Below are positions 1 to 35,596 of a DNA stretch of 36,137 nucleotides, piece after piece. The stretch's first letter is position 1, and each line of letters opens with the position of its first letter. A program made the translations under genes and the position numbers. Source of the DNA: Smithellaceae bacterium (GTDB taxonomy: Bacteria > Desulfobacterota > Syntrophia > Syntrophales > CAMTWB01); assembly GCA_034368785.1 (NCBI GenBank), contig JAXMLI010000124.1, positions 1 through 36,137 of the forward strand, given 5' to 3'. Below the pieces are notes generated by a model. It was not told the DNA's origin. It saw only the letters and a program-made list of their open reading frames with translations, and did not search any database.

Positions 1-222
1 TCCAAAGAAAATCAATGCTGCCTTGTGTGCCAGATCACTGGTGGATGCAAAAGCCGTAACGGTTGCTTCAATTCCATATGGAGTATTGCGTAATTCTACA
101 TTACTATAGAAAGGATGATTATTTACGCGAAAGCCTTTAAATATTTCAAGTTTCTGAGTCCCTATAACTTTTATTGAACCATGGACGGATAGTTGAACTG
201 CCCAAGTTGCAATTTTCGGCAT
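1..222 (-). CDS. hypothetical protein, N-terminal part only (ORF runs off the left window edge)
   Basis: Hand translation of the minus strand from ATG at 222-220 gives MPKIATWAVQLSVHGSIKVIGTQKLEIFKGFRVNNHPFYSNVELRNTPYGIEATVTAF..., open to position 1. A GGAG (233-236) lies about 8 nt upstream of the ATG. It is absent from the ORF track because there is no stop inside the window. No family recognised. Confidence 0.4.
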   Translation of the reverse strand, partial: MPKIATWAVQLSVHGSIKVIGTQKLEIFKGFRVNNHPFYSNVELRNTPYGIEATVTAFASTSDLAHKAALIFFG

Positions 223-240
223 GGTCTTTTATCTCCTTTT

Positions 241-325
241 TTCCGTCATCAACATTATGATTGCATCCAACTACTGACCCTACCTTCGCCTGCTTTCAAG
301 CAAATCAAGCCTGAAAATCCCGGAA
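241..325. repeat. Left copy of an ~85-bp imperfect direct repeat (partner at 2821-2910)
   Basis: ttccgtcatc...ttatgattgcatccaactactgaccctaccttcgcctgctttcaagcaa... aligns with 2821-2910. By hand count the 66-nt core 255-320 vs 2834-2899 matches at about 54/66 positions, and the first 49 at about 44/49. Confidence 0.8.
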
Positions 326-543
326 TTCATTCTCCCAATGGGAAGCGAGCGACGAAATGCTGAACAATGGCTGATGGCTCATTTAAGAAAATTCCATTCG
401 TCAAGAAGGTTTTATCTGAAAAACCGAGCTATTCGCCAGGGCGGTTTTATGTACCTATGTCCCTTTGGCTGTGTATAAACATCTATGATAGCGGATGTGG
501 ATTCCCCGGGCCGAACGTATTTCCACTCATCATGTTGGCCTCG

Positions 544-1170
544 TTAGGATTTATTTTCAGGACGCCAGCGCTCAGGGCATATCAAAATATAGCCATCGGC
601 CTTTTCTACCTCCTGTGGGAACAGGCTTTTTGCTATGTTGGCCCTGCCAATCGTGAAAGTGGATCTTGCATGTTTATCGAGTTCCTTGGAAAAACGGTCC
701 GGGGGAAACGCAATGATTATGTTTTTTTCCGGGAAGAGAAGTCTTATTCTTTTGATTGGCGGAACCAGATCGCTGTCTGCGGAAATCAGGAAGGCCGTGT
801 CGTAGCGCTCCTGAAAGGCATCAGAAAGCAGTTCAACGGCGATATTGACGTCCGTCATCTTTTCATTGGGAACTTCATCCTCAAACCCGCATCGATTGCA
901 TTTCCTTGAAATATTCTGGTATTTGCCGAAATAGATCTGAAAATCGGGGAGCGTGGCCAGCGCTTCAAGATAGGTGTTTTGGCGCTTTTGCTTGTCTGCT
1001 GGTCCCGCAATCCTCGCCGTAAAGTATTTCGTGAAGACCAACTGATGATGTGGTTTCAGGAGATTTTGCACGAGTATTTGCTGATTCAACCAGTAATAAC
1101 GCCGCCAACCTTTCGATTTTAAACCAAAATAGAGATTAAACCCGTCGATATAAGCAATAACCCGCTGCAT
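544..1170 (-). CDS. NYN-domain (LabA-like, PIN-fold) predicted ribonuclease
   Basis: 208-aa ORF. It carries IAYIDGFNLYFG at the N-terminus and EKMTDVNIAVELLSDA ... FLISADSDLVPPI acidic motifs typical of NYN/LabA-like nucleases, with a CNRCG insert. GGAGA lies ~7 nt upstream of ATG 1170. The opposite-strand ORF 367-909 is a shadow. Confidence 0.8.
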   Translation of the reverse strand: MQRVIAYIDGFNLYFGLKSKGWRRYYWLNQQILVQNLLKPHHQLVFTKYFTARIAGPADKQKRQNTYLEALATLPDFQIYFGKYQNISRKCNRCGFEDEVPNEKMTDVNIAVELLSDAFQERYDTAFLISADSDLVPPIKRIRLLFPEKNIIIAFPPDRFSKELDKHARSTFTIGRANIAKSLFPQEVEKADGYILICPERWRPENKS

Positions 1171-1247
1171 ACCATAATCTCCGACCGACTGATTGAACGC
1201 CCCTGACAGGACAGTTCATTTGCTTATAACAGGACAAATAATTTTTC

Positions 1248-1276
1248 TTGACAACAAGACCGGACACCCTTATGGT
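1248..1276 (+). promoter_or_regulatory. sigma70-like promoter (TTGACA-17 nt-TATGGT) facing the hairpins at 1293-1344
   Basis: TTGACA at 1248-1253, a 17-nt spacer, and TATGGT at 1271-1276. The -35 lies within cttgacaacaag (1247-1258), which reads cttgttgtcaag on the opposite strand, so TTGTCA faces the NYN gene there. Two ACAGGACA direct repeats sit at 1206-1213 and 1229-1236. Confidence 0.3.
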
Positions 1277-1282
1277 CGAATC

Positions 1283-1344
1283 GTCAACAGCCCCGGAGAT
1301 AGCATCTCCGGCCCGACGTCCCCTCCACGAGGGGACGTTTTTTA
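1283..1344 (+). ncRNA. candidate ~60-nt small RNA (promoter to intrinsic terminator, no ORF)
   Basis: The predicted TSS is ~1283. Hairpin 1 is CCGGAGAU-agc-AUCUCCGG (1293-1311). Hairpin 2 is a terminator at 1316-1338 followed by a U-run. The only ORF here (1248-1439, 63 aa) reads through the hairpins and has no RBS. Confidence 0.3.
1316..1344 (+). terminator. rho-independent terminator (plus-strand orientation)
   Basis: Perfect 10-bp stem ACGUCCCCUC / GAGGGGACGU (1316-1325 / 1329-1338) with a 3-nt loop, followed by a T-run (1339-1343). On the minus strand the hairpin is followed by cgggcc, with no U-tract. Confidence 0.6.
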
Positions 1345-1409
1345 ATGACATCAAAACATCTATTCACAATGGCCGGATCGGCCTGTCTTGCACCGTACCC
1401 GAAGACCTT

Positions 1410-1694
1410 TTATATTACGATGATTTTCTTCTCCTTTAGCATGGACAGATAGTCCTCATAGCTCAGGGGGCAATCCAGAAGGTCATCGAGTTGCTTTCTG
1501 GATAGGTGCAGTTCTCTGGCTACAAAAGATAATAGATTGTCTCCGTATTCGCTACGGCCGTGACTGATTTTAGTGCGGACTCCGGATTTTTGACCTTCGA
1601 CGGAGAAAAATAGGTAGGTATGATCGCGTTGAACCGGGATGAAGCCTTTTTTAGTTAATCCCTCTTTAATCTCCCGCGCCTTCCTTGTCGCCAT
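1410..1694 (-). CDS. HicA-like (YcfA-type) putative toxin with a C-terminal extension
   Basis: 94-aa ORF. KKGFIPVQRDHTYLFF...TKISHGRSEYGDNLLSFVARELHLS follows the HicA pattern by eye (GF, conserved His, xHxxxEIxxxLLxxIxxQLxLS). GGAGG lies just upstream of ATG 1694. Its start overlaps the upstream ORF by 29 nt. Confidence 0.5.
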   Translation of the reverse strand: MATRKAREIKEGLTKKGFIPVQRDHTYLFFSVEGQKSGVRTKISHGRSEYGDNLLSFVARELHLSRKQLDDLLDCPLSYEDYLSMLKEKKIIVI

Positions 1695-2634
1695 GTACCT
1701 CCGCCTTTCTTACCAGTTCGATAAGTTTCCTTTTCAGTGAAAGGGCATCCCGGGTAAGCAGATTGTCTTCTTCCTGGGCGATAACATTCCAAAGAACCTC
1801 AAATTCGTTAGAGAATTCTCGCATGACATCTTCGCGAGTTTCACCGTAGGCGATTATGCCAAGGTTGGTGTCTTCTGAAAATAATAGATCATCCTGCTTT
1901 TCGATGACGCAAGCGATGGGGTGGACAAGGTGAAAAGTATTACCTTTTGCCTTGATTTTTTGGGGCCTCCAGACATGCTCGGGGTCGAGATTGAGTTCCG
2001 ATACCTCATGGGTTTCGACCCATTTCTTGATATCGCCATGTTCCATCTGAGCCATGCCTTTAGCCTCAACAAACTTAATTGTCGGCTCCGCAATTTTTTC
2101 GAAAGTGTCCGGTAGTGCCTCAAGTTTTTTTATGACGCCACTTGGCGGACGGACCAGCATCTTTTGCGGTCCGCCGTTAAAGCGGAAAGAAAGGCTATAG
2201 TCTGAGCCGTCTGCCGGGGCAATCGTGCAAATGCGGCTTATAACACGTCGCCTCAAGGAAGGATGAGGCAGGATCTGCTCCAGTTTGACAGTATCAACAT
2301 CTAAAAATGCATCTATCGCCTGCTGTGTATCTTCAATAATGTCTTCCGAAAAATCAGCTTCATCTGGAAAGAGAGTAGCCTCTTTTCCCGGTAGTTCCAA
2401 AACGGCGTTGAGACTCCCATGTTCCGTTTTTATCAAGAATAATTCACATTTTGCCTTAATGATAGCCGGAACAGGTCCCCTCATTTCACGTTTGAGCCGG
2501 GCTCCCGCTATCTGAAATACTATTTCTTGGACAGATTGTAGAGTTTTCGCAAAGAGTGAAACAGAAACCCTGCCATTCCGAACAGCGTCTCCGGCCAGAG
2601 TAACTTCGATCTTTCTGTTTTTGCCTTCGCTCAC
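1666..2634 (-). CDS. 322-aa protein: unknown ~230-aa N-terminal region fused to a HicB/UPF0150-like C-terminal domain
   Basis: GTG start at 2634-2632 with AAGGA ~9 nt upstream. The C-terminal IACVIEKQDDLLFSEDTNLGIIAYGETREDVMREFSNEFEVLWNVI matches the HicB N-domain pattern (..IEK..D....A..P.LG....G.T.EEA......A....). The N-terminal part is unrecognised. Confidence 0.55.
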   Translation of the reverse strand: MSEGKNRKIEVTLAGDAVRNGRVSVSLFAKTLQSVQEIVFQIAGARLKREMRGPVPAIIKAKCELFLIKTEHGSLNAVLELPGKEATLFPDEADFSEDIIEDTQQAIDAFLDVDTVKLEQILPHPSLRRRVISRICTIAPADGSDYSLSFRFNGGPQKMLVRPPSGVIKKLEALPDTFEKIAEPTIKFVEAKGMAQMEHGDIKKWVETHEVSELNLDPEHVWRPQKIKAKGNTFHLVHPIACVIEKQDDLLFSEDTNLGIIAYGETREDVMREFSNEFEVLWNVIAQEEDNLLTRDALSLKRKLIELVRKAEVHGDKEGAGD

Positions 2635-2661
2635 TGTTTATGATCCTTCGTCCCTGGATAT

Positions 2662-2695
2662 AAAAACCCCGCTCTCTTCAAGCCGAGAAGCGGGG
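2662..2695 (-). terminator. intrinsic-terminator-like hairpin between repeat B and the 322-aa gene
   Basis: On the minus strand, CCCCGCU...AGCGGGG forms a 7-bp GC stem (2695-2689 / 2673-2667) with a 15-nt loop, followed by UUUUU (2666-2662). It lies only ~30 nt upstream of the GTG start at 2634. Confidence 0.45.
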
Positions 2696-2820
2696 TCCGT
2701 GATCTTTTCCTTCCATGGTTCTTTCCTTTCCGCTTTATGAAAAGATGGAACCGGGTCGTGTTCATATCTACCTTAACCGTAAGAGACGTTATATCCAGCC
2801 GTATTTTCCGTCAAGGTTTT

Positions 2821-2910
2821 TTCCGTTATCGTGTTATGATTGCATCCAACTCCTGAACCTGCCTTCTCCTGCTCTCAAGCAACTCGACAATGAAAACCTA
2901 CTACCCGGAT
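2821..2910. repeat. Right copy of the ~85-bp direct repeat (partner at 241-325)
   Basis: See 241-325. It ends 8 nt before the stop codon (2919-2921) of the metallophosphoesterase gene. GC content rises sharply to the right of this point, by eye. Confidence 0.8.
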
Positions 2911-2918
2911 CTCCTTGA

Positions 2919-4055
2919 TCAGGGCCGCACCAGGTCAAGCACCGTCACCTCGGGCGGGGCCAGGAAGCGGATCGGCGGCCCCCAGGTACCAGTTCCCCGG
3001 CTGGTGTAGAGGGACGAGCCTTTTGAAAGCCTGGCGAAACCCGTGGGATAGGGAAAAACCAGACGGGTCAGGAGATAAAAGGGGAAGATCTGGCCCCGGT
3101 GGGTATGGCCGGAGACCTGGAGATCAAAAAGGCCGAGGCTGTCCTCCTCCACCAGGGGCTGATGTTTCAAGAGCAGGGTAAAGCGGTCCCGGGGAAGCCC
3201 CGCGAGGAGCGTTTTTTCCTCCCCCGGCAAGGCCAGGCCAAACCGCTGCGCCGTGGGATCATCCGCCCCCGCCAGATTCACCAGCCCCCCCACCGTGACG
3301 GCTTCTCCCCGGAGCAGGGTGAACCCGGCCTCCTGGGTCAGGGCCAGGGCATAGGGCAGACCCACAAAATACTCGTGGTTGCCCGGGACGGCGTATTTGC
3401 CCAAGGGAGGCTGGTACTTGGCCAGGAGCGCCATGGACCCCTCCACATGGTTCAGCTGCCCGTCCACAAGATCCCCCAGGGAAATCAGGAGATCTGGCTT
3501 GGCCTCCTCGAGGACCCGCAGCACCCTTTTCACCCGGTCTTCGCCCACGATCACCCCCAGATGAAGATCGGAAATAAAGGCGATCCGCAGTCGGTCCACC
3601 CCGGCAGGGAGCTTTTCCGTGACCAGGGTATGGGTCTCCGTTTTGATCTGAAGCGCCGCGTAAAACCCATAGAAACCAATCAGGATGGACAGGAGACCGG
3701 GAAGGAAAAATGCGGTCCGCCGGGAGGGTCGGAGCGCCGAGAGATCCAGCCAGGGGGAGAGCCCCCAGAGAAGGAGGCGATAGAGATCAACGAGGAAGGA
3801 AAGGGAAAAGCAGAGGAACGCCACCCCCATCCAAATGTAGCCCGTATAGGCAAGGAGTCTGGCCAGGAGATCCAGCTCATGGCGCTCGGCCAGACGCACC
3901 AGGACGGGCGCGATGATCATGAAGATAAAAATCACCCCCAGGAGCGCCTTGCCAGGAGCGCCCGGTGCCAGGGCGCCGACTATTTTCCCGTAGAGATAGT
4001 AATGCAGCCCCGTGTAAAGGGTTAAAAAAATCGTGAGAAAAAGGGACATGGTCAT
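2919..4055 (-). CDS. membrane-anchored metallophosphoesterase (calcineurin-like, YkuE-type)
   Basis: 378 aa. There are about four N-terminal hydrophobic helices, then the phosphoesterase motifs ISDLHLG, GDLVDG, GNHEYF and GHTHRGQ. Confidence 0.85.
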   Translation of the reverse strand: MTMSLFLTIFLTLYTGLHYYLYGKIVGALAPGAPGKALLGVIFIFMIIAPVLVRLAERHELDLLARLLAYTGYIWMGVAFLCFSLSFLVDLYRLLLWGLSPWLDLSALRPSRRTAFFLPGLLSILIGFYGFYAALQIKTETHTLVTEKLPAGVDRLRIAFISDLHLGVIVGEDRVKRVLRVLEEAKPDLLISLGDLVDGQLNHVEGSMALLAKYQPPLGKYAVPGNHEYFVGLPYALALTQEAGFTLLRGEAVTVGGLVNLAGADDPTAQRFGLALPGEEKTLLAGLPRDRFTLLLKHQPLVEEDSLGLFDLQVSGHTHRGQIFPFYLLTRLVFPYPTGFARLSKGSSLYTSRGTGTWGPPIRFLAPPEVTVLDLVRP

Positions 4056-4111
4056 AATGAATCGCCTGGTAAGATGTCACAAAAGGAATCCCTTCCGGGA
4101 CGGTTTTTGCT

Positions 4112-4294
4112 GGGTGTGCGACAACTTTATGGGTAGAGCAGTTTTTCTCCCCTCTTTAGCAAAGAGGGGTTGGGGGAGATTTGAGGGAGAATAAATATCC
4201 TTTTGCTTTTTGTTACTAATCCCCCCTCCCCCCCTTTTCCAACGGGGGGATAAGTCTCTGCAAGAATATGATACCAACATTTTGTCGCACACCC
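4112..4294. mobile_element. 183-bp MITE-like element with perfect 13-bp terminal inverted repeats GGGTGTGCGACAA
   Basis: gggtgtgcgacaa at 4112-4124 and ttgtcgcacaccc at 4282-4294 are exact reverse complements. The interior has the hairpin cccctctttagcaaagagggg (4149-4169) and a C-rich/G-rich segment. Related ends recur at 9003, 14121, 14950, 15847, 16280 and 31993. Confidence 0.7.
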
Positions 4295-4302
4295 TTTTTG
4301 GC

Positions 4303-4329
4303 TGGTTCAATCTTGCAGATTGAACCAGT
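4303..4329. repeat. 12-bp-stem palindrome ctggttcaatct-tgc-agattgaaccag
   Basis: Perfect inverted repeat read directly. Related ttgaaccag / gcaagattga strings occur at 14905-14925 and 21575-21590. It is followed by an AATCCNC heptamer run (about 4345-4395). Confidence 0.6.
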
Positions 4330-4403
4330 CAAAAAGAATTGGGGTTGGGGTTTAATCCCCAATCCGCAATCCAGAATCAGTACATCCGCAATATCCAACG
4401 CCG

Positions 4404-8951: not shown

Positions 8952-9002
8952 GGGTCTTATCTATCAGAGCGGAGAGGGCTTTGCAAGGAGATAGGAATTA
9001 AA

Positions 9003-9275
9003 GGGTGTGCGACAATAAGATTTATATCCTTTTCTCCCCCCTTTGGAAAAGGGGGGCAGGGGGGATTTGGAGTGCTTGTTTTGGGCAGTGTCAAAAAATC
9101 TCCCCTAACCCCTCTTTTCCAAAGAGGGGGATGAGGGAGCAGAAGTGTGGCCTGTCGTCGAATATGTACGGAACCCCTCATGGTCGGGCCTGTTTTTCCT
9201 CCCCCCTTTTTCCCGTGTCCAGCGGGACTTATGGGTAAGGGTCAGTATAGCAAAGAGGGGAGAAAAACCGCTCCG
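9003..9275. repeat. cluster of MITE-family fragments and G/C hairpins
   Basis: gggtgtgcgacaa at 9003-9015. Hairpins cccccctttggaaaagggggg (9036-9056) and cccctcttttccaaagagggg (9109-9129). A second degenerate left end lies at ~9146 (gtgtggcctgtcgtcgaatatgtacgg), and tatagcaaagagggg at ~9245-9262. The ORFs here (8957-9181, 9005-9238) translate the repeats. Confidence 0.65.
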
Positions 9276-9281
9276 CCCCGA

Positions 9282-10634
9282 TCAGCCGCTGGGCTTGCCG
9301 AACCTCTCCCGAATGAAACGGCGGGCCTCTCCCCGGTCGGCCAATTGTTTTTCCAGTTGGGCATCCTCCAGGGCGTCCAGCATCTTTTTAAACTTCGGAC
9401 CGGGCGAGAACCCCATTTCCAGGAGATCCCGGCCGTTCAAGAGCGGCGGGGGATGGAGTTCCTCCCGCGACAGCAGGGCAAGCTTATCCCGGCAGAAATG
9501 ATAACTGTCCAGACGGCCATGACTCGCCAGACAGTCCAGGCGATGGAGCTCCAGATGCCGGGAAAAATCGGGGAGCCGGAGGAACCTTTTGAGTTTTGCC
9601 GGCCTTACCTGTTTTATCTTCTGGAAATACACGTGGTGGCGGATAAGGGCAAGAACCGAATCCATCACCTCGATAGAAAACCGCAGACGCCGCATGAGAT
9701 CCCGGGCCAGTTCCTCCCCCTTTTCCTCGTGGCCGTAGAAATGAATCCCCTTCTCATCCCGGAAACAGGCAGGGGGCTTGCCCACATCATGCAGCAGGGC
9801 GCCCCAGGCGAGGCGTTCATCCGCCCCCCACGCAAGGGGGTCAGAGGGCAAGAGGGCCAGCATCCGCAGGGTATGTTCCCGCACATCCCCTTCGGGATGA
9901 TAGGCGGGGTCCTGCAGAACCCCCGACATCGCGGAAACCTCTGGCAGGATATGCCGCAGAAGGCCGGAGGCCTCCAGGAGTTCCATCCCCCTTCTGGCCC
10001 CGCCCTGGGTGAGGAGCTTCGTCATTTCTATGCGGATGCGCTCGGCGCTGATCAGCAGGATTTTTTCCGCCTGATCCTTGATGGCCGAAAAGGTGTCGGG
10101 ATCCATCTCAAAACCGAAGGCCGCGGCAAAGCGAACCGCCCGGAGCATCCGCAGGTGATCCTCAGCAAAACGTTCGCGGGGCCGGCCGATCGCGCGGATA
10201 ATCCCCTTTTCGAGATCACTTCTCCCGCCGGAATAGTCGGTAATTTCGCCGGTGGTGGGGTCCAGCAGGAGGCCATTTATGGTAAAGTCCCGCCTCAGCA
10301 CATCTTCCCTGGCCGTGGCATACCTTACCTCCGATGGCCGCCGTCCATCCTGATAGGCCAGGTCCGAGCGGAAGGTGGCCACCTCGTAGCCCCGGCCATC
10401 CTCCAGCACCAGAATGACCCCGAAACTGGCCCCGATTGGCGCGGTGCGGGGGAATAATTTCTGCACCTCTTCCGGGCGGGCGGAGGTGGCGATGTCATAA
10501 TCTTCCGGCTCAACCTGGCGAAGGAGATCACGGACGCAGCCCCCCACGAGGTAGGCTTCATGACCCGCCTCAATCAACCTGGCCACCAGCGATTTTGCCG
10601 TATCCAGTGAGGACCGCGCTCCCATCAGTGTCAA
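9282..10634 (-). CDS. cca: CCA-adding tRNA nucleotidyltransferase with HD domain
   Basis: 450 aa. It has a PolyA-polymerase head domain (LVGGCVRDLL, DYDIAT), RRDFTINGL, and a C-terminal HD region (LLHDVGKP). Confidence 0.85.
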   Translation of the reverse strand: MTLMGARSSLDTAKSLVARLIEAGHEAYLVGGCVRDLLRQVEPEDYDIATSARPEEVQKLFPRTAPIGASFGVILVLEDGRGYEVATFRSDLAYQDGRRPSEVRYATAREDVLRRDFTINGLLLDPTTGEITDYSGGRSDLEKGIIRAIGRPRERFAEDHLRMLRAVRFAAAFGFEMDPDTFSAIKDQAEKILLISAERIRIEMTKLLTQGGARRGMELLEASGLLRHILPEVSAMSGVLQDPAYHPEGDVREHTLRMLALLPSDPLAWGADERLAWGALLHDVGKPPACFRDEKGIHFYGHEEKGEELARDLMRRLRFSIEVMDSVLALIRHHVYFQKIKQVRPAKLKRFLRLPDFSRHLELHRLDCLASHGRLDSYHFCRDKLALLSREELHPPPLLNGRDLLEMGFSPGPKFKKMLDALEDAQLEKQLADRGEARRFIRERFGKPSG

Positions 10635-14120: not shown

Positions 14121-14175
14121 GGGGTGCGGCAATAAGATTGATATCCTATTCTTCCCCCTTTGGAAAAGGGGACAA
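14121..14175. repeat. left-end type fragment of the GGTGTGCGACAA element
   Basis: ggggtgcggcaataagattgatatcctattcttccccctttggaaaagggg parallels 9003-9056 (gggtgtgcgacaataagatttatatcc...cccccctttggaaaagggggg). Confidence 0.6.
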
Positions 14176-14267
14176 GAACCGCTCCCCCCATAAATATGTC
14201 GCGCGCCCCTTGACTTGGAAAAGGCAATCAAATATCTCTTATGACCAGGGTTGGCAGGAGGGCGCTT

Positions 14268-15846: not shown

Positions 15847-16293
15847 GGTGTGCAACAAAAATGTTGGGCAATCTTGCAGAGACTTACCCTCCCTTTGGAA
15901 AAGGGGGGCAGGGGGAATTTATCCTAAAATAGGCACGAATATCCGGTTAGGAAATTGCGCTTGTCCTTATCAGGTTATTTTTGAGGCATAATGACCGTCT
16001 TTGCCGGTCTTCTTCCTCTTTTCTTCCTCCCCCTGAAGGGGAGGCCTAAAACCCCATCCCCCTCCTAACCTCCCCCTTGAAGGGGGAGGAATTAAGTAGT
16101 GCCCCTCCCAAGGCCATCTATAAAGGGGGAGGAAGAAAACCCGAACCAAACAGAGTATTTATGGATGACGCAAAAAGCTAACCGGACATTGCTGAAAAAT
16201 AATGGACCATTTAGTATCCGTCAAATCTCCCCAACCCCTCTTTGCTAAAGAGGGGAGAGAAACTGCCCTGCCCGTTATTTTGTCGCGCGCCCC
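15847..16293. mobile_element. inverted-orientation copy of the GGTGTGCGACAA element carrying a nested ~257-bp element
   Basis: ggtgtgcaacaaaaatgttgggcaatcttgcagagacttaccc (15847-) is the reverse complement of the right-end type. cccctctttgctaaagagggg...ttgtcgcgcgccc (-16293) is the reverse complement of the left-end type. Confidence 0.6.
15936..16192. mobile_element. nested ~257-bp MITE-like element (TIR cgaatatccggttag / ctaaccggacattgc), copy 1
   Basis: Reverse-complement homologue of 32022-32259. For example, the reverse complement of 16141-16192 matches gcaatgtccggttagctttttgcgtcatccataaatactct.t.t.gttcgggtttt at 32022-32078. The interior has three CCCCTT(C/G)AAGGGG hairpins. Confidence 0.65.
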
Positions 16294-29978: not shown

Positions 29979-29996
29979 GATGAGACCGCCGTTCTT

Positions 29997-30086
29997 CAGG
30001 GGACACGTACCGATCCGCTTCGCGGCTTCCGGTACATGTCCCCTTTACGTACCGATCCGCTTCGCGGCTTCATATGTCCCCTCAGG
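29997..30086. repeat. hairpin repeat GGGGACACGTACCG-N17-CGGTACATGTCCCC plus a second partial unit, filling the oppB-oppC spacer
   Basis: The 13/14-bp stem lies at 29999-30012 / 30030-30043. A partial unit lies at 30046-30086. An inverted copy lies at 31079-31123. Confidence 0.75.
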
Positions 30087-31056: not shown

Positions 31057-31919
31057 GAGAGCCCCCGTCCCGGTGGGAGGGGACATGTACCGGAAGCCGC
31101 GCAGCGGATCGGTACGTGTCCCCTGAGCAGTTCATGATAGTTCTTAAGCGCCCGCTGAAGCCGCTCTCTGGTATGGGCCTCCAGGGTGATTACCGGCGCA
31201 TCCTCCCGTTCGGTCAGGGCCGCCATGAGCTTCGAAAAGGGGAAGGTCCCTTCTCCAATCGGGAGATGCTGATCCTGCGAACCGTCGTTGTCATGAAGGT
31301 GGAGCTGCCCCAGATATCCGCCCAGACGGTTCAGCCACTGCTCCAGGGGGGTCCGGGAGAAGACGTTGAAGTGACCCGTATCCAGACAGAAGCAGACCCG
31401 GGGAGAATTGAGGGCGGAGAAAAGGAGGGCGAGTTGATGAGGGTCCTTTTCATAGACATTCTCCAGGGAGATCGTGGTACTCATCTCCTCGGCGAGACGG
31501 GCAAAATGCCGCCAGGTGTCCAGGCTGTTCTCAAGCCACCGCTCTTCCGCCCCCGTGTAGTATTTGGCATCGAAAGAGGGATGACAAACCACCCTTTCCG
31601 GCTGGAACAGGGGGACGAGATCAAAGACCTGAGACAGCCGGTCCATCGTTACCCGGCGGATCTTCGGATCCAGGGCGCCGGGACGCAGATCCAGAAAGGG
31701 GGCGTGAAAGGTAATCCGCCGTCCCGCCTCCCTCAGACGCCGGGCCACCTCAATATAATCCTCTCTTTTCGTTTCATCCAGCGTTGTCTGATTGAAACCT
31801 ATTTCGGGGTTCAGCCCCTCCGAGATCACCACGGACAGGTGATCGTCCCTAAGGAGCCCGAAGGGCACATGCACCTGGGGATTTTCTTTTCGTTTGTCCA
31901 TGATCTCCCGCTTGTTCAT
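31053..31919 (-). CDS. sugar phosphate isomerase/epimerase (xylose isomerase-like TIM barrel)
   Basis: The preferred start is ATG 31919 ([13 protein letters not shown]...). [18 protein letters not shown] and HLHDNDG motifs are present. The last ~24 codons ([24 protein letters not shown]) read through the hairpin repeat. The TGA overlaps the oppB ATG (ATGA). Confidence 0.75.
31079..31123. repeat. inverted copy of the GGGGACA.GTACCG hairpin repeat, lying inside the 3' end of the isomerase ORF
   Basis: ggggacatgtaccggaagccgcgcagcggatcggtacgtgtcccc, the reverse-orientation homologue of 29999-30043. Confidence 0.75.
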
Positions 31920-31992: not shown

Positions 31993-32300
31993 GGTGTGCG
32001 ACGAATTTATGGGTAGAATAGGCAATGTCCGGTTAGCTTTTTGCGTCATCCATAAATACTCTTTTTAGTTCGGGTTTTGTTCCTCCCCCTTCAAGGGGAG
32101 CCTGAGGTGGGGCCGCGCCAGATTCCTCCCCTTGAAGGGGAGGGAGGTTGGGGCTTTAGGTTTCACCTTGAAGGGAAGGGAGACGGCCCGGTAAAGACGG
32201 CCATTATACCCCCCAAAAAACCTGTTAAGGACAGGCACAATTTTCTAACCAGACATTCGTGGGGTAGAATAGTTTTTAGGCCCCTCTTTAGCAAAGAAAT
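31993..32300. mobile_element. truncated GGTGTGCGACAA-family element interrupted by a nested element
   Basis: ggtgtgcgacgaatttatgggtagaatag (31993-32021), then the insertion, then tttttaggcccctctttagcaaaga (32273-). This is collinear with the uninterrupted 4113-4165 (ggtgtgcgacaactttatgggtagagcagtttttctcccctctttagcaaaga). Confidence 0.65.
32022..32259. mobile_element. nested 238-bp MITE-like element, copy 2, with TIRs and an 11-bp flanking duplication
   Basis: The TIRs are gcaatgtccggttag (32022-32036) and ctaaccagacattcg (32245-32259), matching at 12/15. The flanking direct repeat gggtagaatag lies at 32011-32021 and 32262-32272. Confidence 0.7.
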
Positions 32301-34074: not shown

Positions 34075-34122
34075 TGACAACCCCTCCAGCCTTGCGGTTG
34101 CAGATCAGCGCGACAGAGGCTC

Positions 34123-34241
34123 TTGCAAAACTCACCCGGCCGCGACGGAGCGCGTCCCCTCCAGTCTCCAAAACTTGCCGTTTCCCACGCCTTTTGGAGG
34201 GCCACGCTCCGTCGTGGCCGTCTTTGCCGTGAGTTTTGCAA
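34123..34241. mobile_element. 119-bp MITE-like element with 13-bp TIRs TTGCAAAACTCAC, copy 1
   Basis: ttgcaaaactcac at 34123-34135 and gtgagttttgcaa at 34229-34241. The interior has the hairpins gcgacggagcgcgtc and ggccacgctccgtcgtggcc. An inverted copy lies at 35419-35536. Confidence 0.75.
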
Positions 34242-34254
34242 TTGGCTCGACAGA

Positions 34255-34548
34255 CTATAATTTCTCCTCCACCGACCGGACCTTCCCCTCCAGCCGGCCA
34301 TTCTTACCCGCTTGATAATCGGCCCTCATGTTGATGATAATCCTGCTGGAATCCTTCTTCAGCTCTTCCAGACATTTATTGACCACGGCCATCACTTCGG
34401 CCCATTCCCCTTCGATACAGGTCCCCATCGGGCCAAGCTGATAGGGCAGACCGCTTTCCTTCACGATCCTTACGGCCCGGGAAACGTAGGGACTCAGGCT
34501 GGATCCCTTGTCCATCGGGAAAATCGACAGCTCAACAATGACACTCAT
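34255..34548 (-). CDS. MTH1187/YkoF-family (UPF0045) thiamine-binding-like protein
   Basis: 97 aa. MSVIVELSIFPMDKGSSLSPYV...LGPMGTCIEGEW..V is the classic MTH1187-family N-terminal pattern. Confidence 0.8.
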   Translation of the reverse strand: MSVIVELSIFPMDKGSSLSPYVSRAVRIVKESGLPYQLGPMGTCIEGEWAEVMAVVNKCLEELKKDSSRIIINMRADYQAGKNGRLEGKVRSVEEKL

Positions 34549-34661
34549 AAAATCTCCTTCTCAAAAAACGAAAGGTCAAAAGTAACGATGAACCCGGGAA
34601 CCCAAACTACACTGAAGGCGCCGGGGCTGTCAATATCCCCGGGAAGGAAATGTTTTCGTCC

Positions 34662-34690
34662 TTGACATCAGCGCCCTGGTTGCCTATATT
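34662..34690 (+). promoter_or_regulatory. sigma70-type promoter of ssrA
   Basis: TTGACA at 34662-34667, a 17-nt spacer, and TATATT at 34685-34690. The predicted TSS is ~30 nt upstream of the mature tmRNA 5' end. Confidence 0.6.
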
Positions 34691-34725
34691 GTACTCAAAT
34701 TATAAGCATTTCCGCCAGAGAGAAA

Positions 34726-35079
34726 GGGGGCGTCACGGTTTCGACGGGGATAGTGAAGCTGTAGCAGCGTACCGAGGTTCCTGCAGGCCTCGTTAAACAG
34801 GCAGGAAAACATAATCGCAGACAACTACGATTACGCTTTAGCCGCTTAGACGGCTAACGTCTCCCTGACATTGCCTGTCGTGTCAGATCGGGGCGTCAAA
34901 CAGACAGGAAAGCCTTCCGGTCCCGCCTGGTGACCGGTGGGTTAAACTTACAGGCTAGGGTCCGGCTGATCCTGCCCCTTCGGGAGCTGCCAGAACCGAA
35001 ATCCAAAACACGGGCTACGTACGTAGACACTGCAGTGAAACATTTTCGGACGCGGGTTCGACTCCCGCCGCCTCCACCA
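34726..35079 (+). ncRNA. ssrA: tmRNA (SsrA), tag reading frame ADNYDYALAA-stop at 34817-34849
   Basis: The 5' end is GGGGGCGUCACGGUUUCGACGGGG. The 3' end is GGACGCGGGUUCGACUCCCGCCGCCUCCACCA, a tRNA-Ala-like acceptor/T-arm with CCA. The tag is GCA GAC AAC UAC GAU UAC GCU UUA GCC GCU UAG. ORFs 34896-35357 and 34930-35130 overlapping it are spurious. Confidence 0.95.
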
Positions 35080-35100
35080 AGTGACAATAGACCACAGAAT

Positions 35101-35148
35101 ACCCGCCTTTCCGGATTATCTCCGGGATGACGGGTTTTCTTTTCCTGC
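35101..35148 (+). terminator. probable ssrA terminator
   Basis: A compound hairpin with ACCCG...CGGGU outer pairs (35101-35105 / 35131-35135) and an inner CCGGA-uuauc-UCCGG, followed by UUUUCUUUUCC. Confidence 0.45.
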
Positions 35149-35418
35149 CTCAGCTCATCTGCCTTCCGGCCGACGGGGTCGGGAGACGAGAGGAATCGTC
35201 CAGAATACGGCCACTTCGTATCACTAATACCAAATGGTCCATGTCGTCTACTTCCAGGGGATGAGGGTCTCGGAAGGGAAAATCCAACCGCGGCCGCAAT
35301 ATCTGCCACCTCTTCCCCTGCTGATGGAAGGCGAAAATAAGCGAAGCCGCCAGACAAAGATCATGTTCTTACCATGCACTTGCCATTAAGCAATATATCT
35401 TCTAGTTAATAGAGGTAA

Positions 35419-35536
35419 TTGCAAAACTCACGGTAAAGACGGCCACGACTTCGCTAGTCCCTCCAAAAGGCGAGGAAAACGGCACGTTTGGGTGACTGGA
35501 GGGACGCGCTCCGTCGCGTCCGCAGGAGTTTTGCAA
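35419..35536. mobile_element. 119-bp MITE-like element, copy 2 (inverted relative to 34123-34241)
   Basis: ttgcaaaactcacggtaaagacggccacgac...ggagggacgcgctccgtcgcgtccgcaggagttttgcaa. It is collinear with the reverse complement of copy 1. Confidence 0.75.
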
Positions 35537-35596
35537 TTGCCTCAATATTGATTATTTTGCGGAAGCCCAAGATAATCGAACCCACGTTGCCGGTTT

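Follow-up and report, generated by a model that had tools for sequence, protein, structure and literature searches.

A probable end of a decayed defence island with a class 8 hicBA pair, an HEC-09-type nuclease gene and a conserved small RNA in a Smithellaceae contig

Genes and features of bases 1-2910

The stretch of DNA considered here, called the window throughout, comprises positions 1 to 36,137 (36,137 nucleotides, nt) of contig JAXMLI010000124.1 from the Smithellaceae bacterium assembly GCA_034368785.1. Its first 2910 bases hold a gene for a NYN-domain nuclease, an overlapping pair of hicB-like and hicA-like genes with a leader, a small RNA gene on the opposite strand between the nuclease gene and the pair, the remnant of a type III methyltransferase gene, the 5' part of a further gene and two copies of a direct repeat (Table 1). 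With a probability of about 0.7, bases 1-2910 form the right end of a defence island which was acquired horizontally and has partly decayed. An earlier reading made from the letters alone (the sequence-only reading) had taken bases 241 to 2910 for a cassette bracketed by direct repeats and for a single three-gene system of a composition which it could not name. Names can now be given to both protein modules, the pair being assigned to class 8 hicBA in the classification of Gerdes and the NYN gene to HEC-09 of PADLOC. Loci of other genomes are cited by their handles (L003 and so on).

The NYN/PIN nuclease gene proposed in the sequence-only reading was borne out. Its product matches Pfam NYN (8.3e-10; 39.8 bits against a cut-off of 24.2), the HEC-09 profile of PADLOC (PDLC04163, 3.4e-87, 203 of 203 profile positions) and phrog_7929 (6e-33), and 5489 homologues were found at E<=1e-20. 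In 25 NYN homologues the aspartates D9, D132 and D134 are invariant and D107 is nearly so. HEC-09, the Hma-embedded candidate 09, was found within Hma defence systems (Payne et al., bioRxiv 10.1101/2024.01.29.577857), and the available passages of that paper agree with the window in presenting a single gene for a NYN/PIN-like predicted RNase of ~203-208 amino acids (aa) with conserved aspartates, embedded among defence genes. The window differs in the divergent 60-nt small RNA gene beside the nuclease gene, none being mentioned in these passages. Judged by its profile matches and by the company it keeps elsewhere, the gene is HEC-09 and a module independent of the pair. Both in the window and in L026 it lies embedded, with hicBA on one side and a type III mod remnant on the other, and on the Thermus plasmid pTHEOS01 it follows a helicase-related gene; scans of viral contigs for NYN gave few loci. 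A more distant NYN-domain gene, 36% identical to that of the window, was met together with a VbhA-family antitoxin gene as the main cargo of identical 3461-bp plasmids in Escherichia coli (pKMi006_5, L127) and Serratia rubidaea.

The hicB and hicA genes overlap by 29 nt, an arrangement found in all related loci, and the pair is complete in all 21 loci which hold both of its ends. Both proteins form small tight families without a Pfam domain, with 27 homologues of the 322-aa protein at >=50% identity, most of them 312-343 aa long, and 44 homologues of the 94-aa protein. The family and structure searches which the sequence-only reading had proposed were uninformative for the pair. No significant match was obtained in Pfam, NCBIfam or PHROGs, a sequence search of the PDB found none, PADLOC yielded only a weak match to PDC-M63B (E 0.0047), and the full model of the 322-aa protein found nothing significant with Foldseek (best E 0.19). 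Pfam HicA_toxin matches one of 25 members of the 94-aa family, at E 0.12, and comparison of the 94-aa protein with E. coli HicA gave P 3.3e-4. The best coherent Foldseek matches of this protein were 1whz and 6g26_E (template modelling score, TM, 0.62 each, E-values not significant), which we take to be HicA-family structures.

The identity of the pair came from the literature together with hhalign. According to Gerdes (bioRxiv 10.1101/2023.12.08.570793), hicB lies 5' of hicA and overlaps it in class 8, HicA has ~95 aa with two additional C-terminal helices, and HicB has 331-356 aa with an undescribed N-terminal part, a middle part and a C-terminal HicB fold; these modules are without a DNA-binding domain and their regulation was left open. 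The Thermococcus litoralis reference sequences were taken from Table S1 of Gerdes (WP_004069339.1, WP_004069337.1). When family profiles were compared with them, HicA aligned over 88 columns (E 1.3e-14) and HicB over 289 columns (E 8.8e-11). The model of the 94-aa protein runs H6-15, E18-22, E26-32, E35-40, H51-61, H66-74, H79-88 (H, helix; E, strand). Its histidine 25 and a TKISHG motif are invariant in the family, and histidine 25 aligns with the histidine of class 8 HicA. In the 322-aa protein an N-terminal domain without known function and a beta-rich middle domain precede the C-terminal HicB fold, which in the AlphaFold model (predicted local distance difference test, pLDDT, 73) has the order beta-beta-beta-alpha...beta. 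No DNA-binding-domain family was matched by this protein in Pfam and other family searches.

Because architecture, lengths, gene order, overlap and the hhalign probabilities of 97-98% fit the description of Gerdes, the 322-aa and 94-aa genes are assigned to class 8 hicBA. This confirms the HicB-like and HicA-like genes of the sequence-only reading, though solely by comparing profiles with class 8 sequences from the literature. Gene order, overlap, three-domain HicB, lack of a DNA-binding domain and significant profile homology of both proteins are shared with the published class. The pair differs from it as a bacterial (Desulfobacterota-type) subfamily, ~27-35% identical to the archaeal representative, in a HicB of 322 aa, slightly under the range of 331-356 aa, and in a conserved promoter-leader-terminator which Gerdes does not describe. 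The 94-aa protein would be the mRNA-cleaving toxin of a class 8 type II operon, and the 322-aa protein would neutralise it through its C-terminal HicB fold.

Upstream of hicB lies the leader. Its promoter consists of a -35 box TTGACG (2814..2809) and a -10 box TATAAC (2793..2788) separated by 15 nt; owing to this short spacer it was missed by the promoter scan and is deduced from conservation. After a Shine-Dalgarno (SD) sequence a short open reading frame (ORF) starts with ATG-AAC-GGA (MNG...; ATG at 2716..2714) and has 12 codons in the window and 2-26 codons across loci, according to our own translations of the alignment. The terminator, a stem at 2695..2667 with a U-run (ACCCCGC...GCGGGGUUUUU), ends 27 nt ahead of the hicB start. 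In the consensus fold an SD-sequestering hairpin is followed by the terminator, with covariation too sparse to prove the structure. Copies of the leader occur in L003 (about 9838-9995), L004, L011, L015-L018 and L026, and none of the Rfam models reached its gathering score for 2661-2814. The leader is a candidate attenuator, and in this operon without a DNA-binding domain the expression of hicBA would be set by it through attenuation.

Table 1. Positions of the features discussed, in window coordinates
Feature	Position	Strand	Evidence
Gene 5' part (74 codons) of a ~271-aa MauJ/HEPN-like protein	1..222	-	P0192 96% identical, all 74 residues
Direct repeat, left copy	237..317	.	66/81 to right copy; third copy in L137
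Type III Mod methyltransferase 5'-end remnant, 16 codons and stop, MMSGNTFGPGNPHPLS	483..533	-	Peptide read from sequence
NYN-domain (PIN-like) predicted nuclease gene, 208 aa, HEC-09 family	544..1170	-	Pfam NYN, PADLOC HEC-09
Small-RNA promoter, sigma-70-type, TTGACA-17 nt-TATGGT	1248..1276	+	Promoter scan; hexamers conserved
Small RNA, ~61 nt, predicted transcript	1283..1343	+	Covariance models R1 85.6, R2 75.7 bits
hicA-like gene, class 8, 94 aa (predicted toxin)	1410..1694	-	hhalign probability 98.3% to T. litoralis class 8 HicA
hicB-like gene, class 8, 322 aa (predicted antitoxin)	1666..2634	-	hhalign probability 97% to T. litoralis class 8 HicB
hicBA leader unit	2661..2814	-	Aligns in 11 loci; promoter, SD and short ORF, terminator
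Direct repeat, right copy	2817..2896	.	Inner end touches -35 box of hicBA leader
Metallophosphoesterase gene, membrane-anchored, YaeI/LpxG-like, resident flank	2919..4055	-	Pfam Metallophos 6.3e-15; GC 0.613, GC3 0.75

Composition, insertion site and order of modules

The segment is foreign DNA of the defence or toxin-antitoxin type, a conclusion supported by its anomalous composition and by the lack of an island past the metallophosphoesterase gene in three syntenic relatives. The GC content of bases 1-2910 is 0.457 and that of the rest of the window 0.567, and the lowest value among all other windows of 2910 nt is 0.535, in agreement with the AT-rich segment of the sequence-only reading. GC at third codon positions (GC3) amounts to 0.46-0.52 in the NYN, hicB and hicA genes as compared to 0.70-0.76 in the neighbouring housekeeping genes. 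The most AT-rich piece is the partial ORF 222..1 (GC 0.387, GC3 0.27), and since it is even more AT-rich the foreign DNA extends past the left repeat.

The island would have been inserted after the resident metallophosphoesterase gene of a Syntrophales-like (Desulfobacterota) genome. Relatives of the metallophosphoesterase are at most 56% identical and occur in metagenome-assembled genomes of Syntrophales and other Deltaproteobacteria. The upstream order, genes for proteins of 682, 101, 177 and 263 aa and then the metallophosphoesterase gene, is kept in L028, L031, L038 and L042. Past the metallophosphoesterase gene L028, L031 and L042 carry equally high-GC DNA encoding a conserved protein of 530-570 aa; L038, the fourth syntenic relative, is uninformative for this region. 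Neither NYN, nor the 322-aa/94-aa pair, nor the ORF 222 protein was found in any of the four. Horizontal acquisition, which the sequence-only reading had proposed together with such a comparison to an empty site, is thus upheld by composition, by these three distant relatives and by the presence of the modules at other sites in other genomes.

The partial ORF at the left end of the window was identified through an exhaustive representative search, which yielded P0192 with a length of 271 aa, and tblastn with the 74-aa fragment found no match in plasmids and phages. Pfam MauJ stays slightly under its cut-off in all nine full-length homologues of the 271-aa protein; one homologue matches Csx1 at 4e-6 and other matches of the Csm6/HEPN type are marginal. 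In L137 the 271-aa gene overlaps a type III Mod gene (PADLOC MTase_III 1.5e-118) located directly after it. If the window resembles L137 here, its partial ORF would be the start of an operon linked to type III restriction-modification (R-M), and the suggestion that an array continues left of the window fits in spirit. Exact look-up of the 322-aa protein gave no match; for NYN and the metallophosphoesterase it returned nothing but short Logan contigs, none of which extends the window.

Another finding was the methylase remnant which directly follows the NYN gene. Its peptide matches the Mod N-termini of L003 (..YGPGNPHPLSQMRTELVW) and L137, the remnant of 83 aa found behind NYN in L026 and the beginning of Mod in L018; the 51 nt which follow the stop codon of NYN are linked by blastn to L113, L026 and the start of Mod in L003. 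The remnant and the mod of L137 belong to one Mod family with a shared GPGNPHPLSQMRTELVW N-terminus. As compared to type III R-M proper, the first mod in the window is a 16-codon relic and no res is in view, so that genes for any R-M activity would have to lie to the left of the window.

Related arrangements are present at an ilvC/lactamase_B site of other genomes. In L003 this site holds leader, hicB, hicA, mod and res, with hicBA directly 5' of mod and res. The same site in L026 and L110-L112 holds leader, a deleted hicB, a hicA relic, the small RNA, NYN and a mod relic. The NYN of L026 is 82% identical to that of the window, and its mod relic has 83 aa. In L026 (6025-6345) and L110-L112 hicB has lost ~220 internal codons in frame, so that 106 aa are left in which the first 13 residues are fused to the C-terminal HicB fold, a form seen in several samples; hicA is almost gone, and small RNA and NYN are intact. 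A further arrangement, hicBA, small RNA and mod, is present in L017 and L018.

Because the order hicBA, small RNA, NYN, mod remnant recurs at another chromosomal site elsewhere, the segment is read as a decayed composite element and not as a three-gene system. The full element, reconstructed by combining loci none of which is complete, would comprise leader, hicB, hicA, small RNA, NYN, type III mod and res. NYN would be an HEC-09-type PIN-like RNase which, together with the divergent 60-nt RNA, moves as a unit and is set among other defence genes; a type III mod would once have stood after it, cut in this genome to 16 codons.

The small RNA family

A promoter-hairpin-terminator unit had been described in the sequence-only reading. 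It was recovered by promoter and terminator scans and is conserved across loci. The small RNA gene points away from NYN and towards hicA, and its transcript is predicted to consist of a 5' tail, an 8-bp hairpin (CCGGAGAU-AGC-AUCUCCGG), the conserved linker CCCGACG and a terminator hairpin with a U-run. By inspection, the promoter hexamers are kept while the spacers diverge (TTGACA-17-TATTGT in L026, with TATTCT in L113 and TACAAT in L114), and L138 has TTGACA-17-CATAAT. A covariance model was built from 3 sequences and rebuilt from 13. Both hairpins show compensatory changes in alignments of NYN-linked units. In the 13 sequences, the alignment of which was fitted to the model, 97% of the cells are paired and 8 of 16 pairs are changed on both sides, a level reached by 0 of 500 shuffles. 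The best covariance-model score in 896 kb of control loci was 18 bits. In Rfam, where matches were listed to E 1 for 1-4400 and to E 10 for 1230-1365, nothing reached the gathering score for the small RNA; the matches were chance-like miRNA models and Hammerhead_II, with 12 bits as compared to the 37 needed. The alignments thus describe what appears to be a real, conserved and mobile RNA family absent from Rfam.

The small RNA stands beside all nine NYN homologues of >=38% identity for which upstream sequence exists. These span Desulfobacterota, Deinococcota, plasmids of Actinomycetota and phage contigs, and the carriers include plasmid pTHEOS01 of Thermus oshimai JL-2 (small RNA at ~205.8 kb), a Microbacterium plasmid and a Streptomyces plasmid. 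It is divergent from NYN in eight of the nine loci, the exception being the same-strand copy on the Streptomyces plasmid (L128). At NYN homologues of <=37% identity no small RNA was detected (the 3.4-kb plasmid of E. coli and Serratia, Leptospira, Methylobacterium and several viral contigs). Conversely, pattern scans and BLAST found the RNA without NYN in four phage contigs, beside genes for a holin, a gp25 baseplate protein, DUF3310 and AAA_5, and it likewise occurs without NYN in the Dolichospermum phage Dfl-JY45 (at ~74.5 kb), on the Sulfuricystis multivorans plasmid pSTJ2 (at ~9.3 kb), where its promoter is TTGACA-17-CATAAT, and in L017 and L018, where it adjoins a type III mod gene. Copies are located in L126 (1387-1441), L138 (2501-2559) and L139 (2501-2560), as well as in L132, L134, L135 and L136. 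The link of small RNA and NYN is therefore strong one way only: every close NYN has the RNA, and the RNA does not always have NYN. On the phage contig L132, which carries the small RNA alone, a UPF0150/HicB-like protein is encoded ~1 kb away (2516-2875, minus strand; Pfam UPF0150-like E 0.003).

In the reading as a decayed island the small RNA would control the NYN nuclease or act as its partner. A doubtful extension of this is that the RNA is an antitoxin or inhibitor of the NYN RNase in a type III-like or type I-like pair, and thereby the missing second component of HEC-09, which would hold the RNase inactive or license it; phage-borne lone copies would then be anti-defence decoys which keep the nuclease off, and the leader of hicBA would act as an attenuator. 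It would fit this proposal that the RNA accompanies all nine close NYN homologues with a conserved promoter and terminator of its own, that covariation backs its structure, and that four phage contigs and an isolated phage carry lone copies. For antitoxin-like RNA in phages there is a precedent in type III toxin-antitoxin systems, and pseudo-ToxI RNA has reportedly been found in phages which escape ToxIN, a parallel to the lone phage copies.

The likeness to type III toxin-antitoxin systems (ToxIN, CptIN, TenpIN) lies in a predicted endoribonuclease gene linked to a small structured RNA ending in a terminator, and in the plasmid, phage or defence-island context. The differences are that the NYN fold is unrelated to ToxN, that the RNA is single-copy here and not a tandem array, that it is usually divergent from its own promoter and not co-transcribed upstream, and that no processing site or pseudoknot is evident in it. 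Tandem copies as in known type III antitoxins were not visible in the aligned sequences, no dedicated tandem-repeat search having been run. A type I (antisense) mode is opposed by the duplex energies between the small RNA and the start region of NYN, which in the nine loci were no better than shuffled (z -1.67 to +1.74). A pairing with the NYN ribosome-binding site, with 13/14-nt complementarity in the window, had been considered and was rejected as it is not conserved elsewhere. The variable orientation of RNA and NYN, the copies beside type III mod and on pSTJ2 where NYN is missing, and the lack of a detectable copy at the more distant NYN homologues also speak against an RNA antitoxin. Toxicity of HEC-09 is not reported in the available passages of Payne et al.

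Repeats, alternative readings and significance

The direct repeats of ~85 bp on which the sequence-only reading had built its cassette are real. Repeat finding over the whole window returned a two-copy repeat of 63 nt at 255-317 and 2834-2896 with 84% identity; 53 of the 63 positions of this core are identical, for which the binomial chance expectation anywhere in the window is 5.6e-12. Local alignment widens the pair to the extent given in Table 1 with one gap, and a fainter similarity broken by indels, read from the alignment by eye, reaches ~340 and ~2915, near the metallophosphoesterase stop. The positions were also confirmed: the left copy ends 18 nt ahead of the ATG of ORF 222..1, and the stop codon of the metallophosphoesterase gene (2919-2921) is located few bases beyond the right copy. 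A third copy forms the first 61 nt of L137, directly 5' of the gene 96% identical to ORF 222..1, and matches the left copy in 57 of 62 and the right copy in 40 of 45 positions. Pattern scans of 596 Gb of genome contigs and of a metagenome contig collection found no further copy. The repeat was also found to be unrelated to the REP-like palindromes of the window and present in only two copies in its 36 kb, so that a generic scattered intergenic repeat, a possibility raised in the sequence-only reading, is very improbable. Homology to the hicBA element of other genomes starts at the inner end of the right repeat; in L003, L004 and L026 no repeat-like sequence was found 5' of the leader, and homology begins there at GAAAAAA/CTTGACG. 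The promoter scan called no promoter in the repeat, and no convincing sigma-70 or sigma-54 motif was seen by eye. For the 137 nt which separate the mod remnant from the left repeat (~346-482) no match was found among the compared loci.

Since AT-rich DNA continues to the left and the third copy in L137 precedes the same gene, the left repeat is not the edge of the foreign DNA; it is the 5' flank, conserved in L137, of a next gene which is just as foreign. Of the bracketed cassette it thus holds that the right repeat marks the start of element homology, and the part assigned to the left repeat has to be given up. In the reading as a decayed island the repeat of ~80-100 nt belongs as 5' flank to the module which comes next, the MauJ/HEPN-like gene of 271 aa which in L137 precedes type III mod. 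A second copy of the repeat, 82% identical, lies at the outer edge of the island, and recombination at this sequence would have stacked two modules side by side. Recombination at the repeat sequence, site-specific or homologous, is the most likely origin of the repeats, though unproven.

A discrete mobile cassette of 2.5 kb with attL/attR-like repeats, formed by tandem accretion or mobilised in trans by a recombinase whose gene would lie left of the window, appears unlikely. It would agree with direct repeats which flank the segment exactly, with a right copy which starts just after the stop codon of a gene, a common att position, and touches the start of element homology with its inner end, and with a composition unlike that of the native flank. 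It is opposed by a longest identical run of 18 nt and by mismatches which are evenly spread and do not form a core-plus-arms pattern, by repeats without secondary structure and without more copies in the large collections, by the same element standing without the repeat at the ilvC site of other genomes, by the left copy, which L137 shows to be the conserved region 5' of the next gene, and by the decay of the segment, which with its mod remnant is not clean. No recombinase is present in the window, and no integrase-like gene was identified there, the ORFs not having been scanned systematically for one.

Very improbable is the view of the sequence-only reading that the NYN, 322-aa and 94-aa proteins form one integrated nuclease-based toxin-antitoxin or defence system, of which the small RNA would be a fourth part. 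The order hicB, hicA, small RNA, NYN is indeed found at two chromosomal sites (the window and L026/L110), with protein genes which are co-oriented and closely spaced. The conserved co-occurrence which would be expected of such a system was looked for and not found, the pair usually occurring without NYN. In ~10 loci with readable downstream sequence NYN is not adjacent to the pair, which stands in a type III R-M locus (L003), in a toxin-antitoxin/abortive-infection (Abi) island (L004-L009) or in a primase-helicase element (L010). NYN lacks the pair in at least seven contexts, including the Thermus, Microbacterium and Streptomyces plasmids, phage contigs and L114. In L026 and L110-L112 the pair is gutted next to an intact NYN and RNA, and each module has its own promoter, with a terminator lying between the two. 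Least of all can the repeats be regarded as integron attC sites or as members of the dispersed REP-like repeats: all genes share one orientation, repeats lie between modules and the window does hold a REP-like palindromic family, but neither copy folds better than shuffled sequence on either strand (z -0.17 to +0.38, on which this identity was rejected), no paired R''/R' arrangement (RYYYAAC...GTTRRRY) was seen by inspection, and the sequence is unlike that family.

Several points weigh against the reading as a horizontally acquired, partly decayed island with the parts proposed here. In the closest syntenic genomes the metallophosphoesterase is no more than 50-56% identical, and owing to this distance the evidence for an empty site is coarse. 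The window ends inside the island, and a continuation into mod and res is drawn from one contig of 1.9 kb (L137). The even spread of mismatches between the repeats and the lack of a recombinase in view give no direct support to stacking by recombination. As the small RNA lives without NYN in ~7 lineages, a dedicated partnership of the two is not proven. A simple leader-peptide model is weakened by the variable length of the leader ORF (2 to 26 codons across loci). Class 8 hicBA has been defined by bioinformatics alone, and the HEC-09 tested gave, in the passages available, no protection against any phage used (bioRxiv 10.1101/2024.01.29.577857).

The remainder of the window offered some further observations. 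REP-like intergenic palindromes (GGGGTGCGACAATAAG...CCCCTTTGGAAAAGGGG), unrelated to the direct repeat, lie between housekeeping genes at 4100-4260, 9000-9130, 14121-14210, 15872-15924, 16019-16290 and 32022-32146. A transfer-messenger RNA (tmRNA) gene with the tag ADNYDYALAA is located at 34726-35079, and after it ARAGORN made a second tmRNA call, which is dubious (region 34116-35543). The gene is flanked by inverted repeats of 100 nt (34157-34260 and 35400-35503) and 43 nt (34116-34158 and 35501-35543), and the right end of the window is low in GC (0.456); the tmRNA region may be another integration hotspot. An inverted repeat of 49 nt, 98% complementary, has its arms ~1 kb apart (29996-30071 and 31078-31126) and may delimit a small insertion element or an invertible segment.

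As a gene cassette the segment is ordinary, another partly decayed defence island made of modules catalogued in 2023-2024. Set beside L003, L017/L018 and L026, the window provides a natural example of embedded defence genes which insert into and erode a type III R-M-linked operon. The leader, if it is an attenuator, would answer the question of Gerdes on how HicBA modules without a DNA-binding domain are regulated. For the small-RNA family, an RNA partner would offer a testable reason for the inactivity of HEC-09 in the published screen and could point to a new RNA-controlled nuclease system, which if true would be a new type of RNA-protein toxin-antitoxin or abortive-infection system with a PIN-like toxin.

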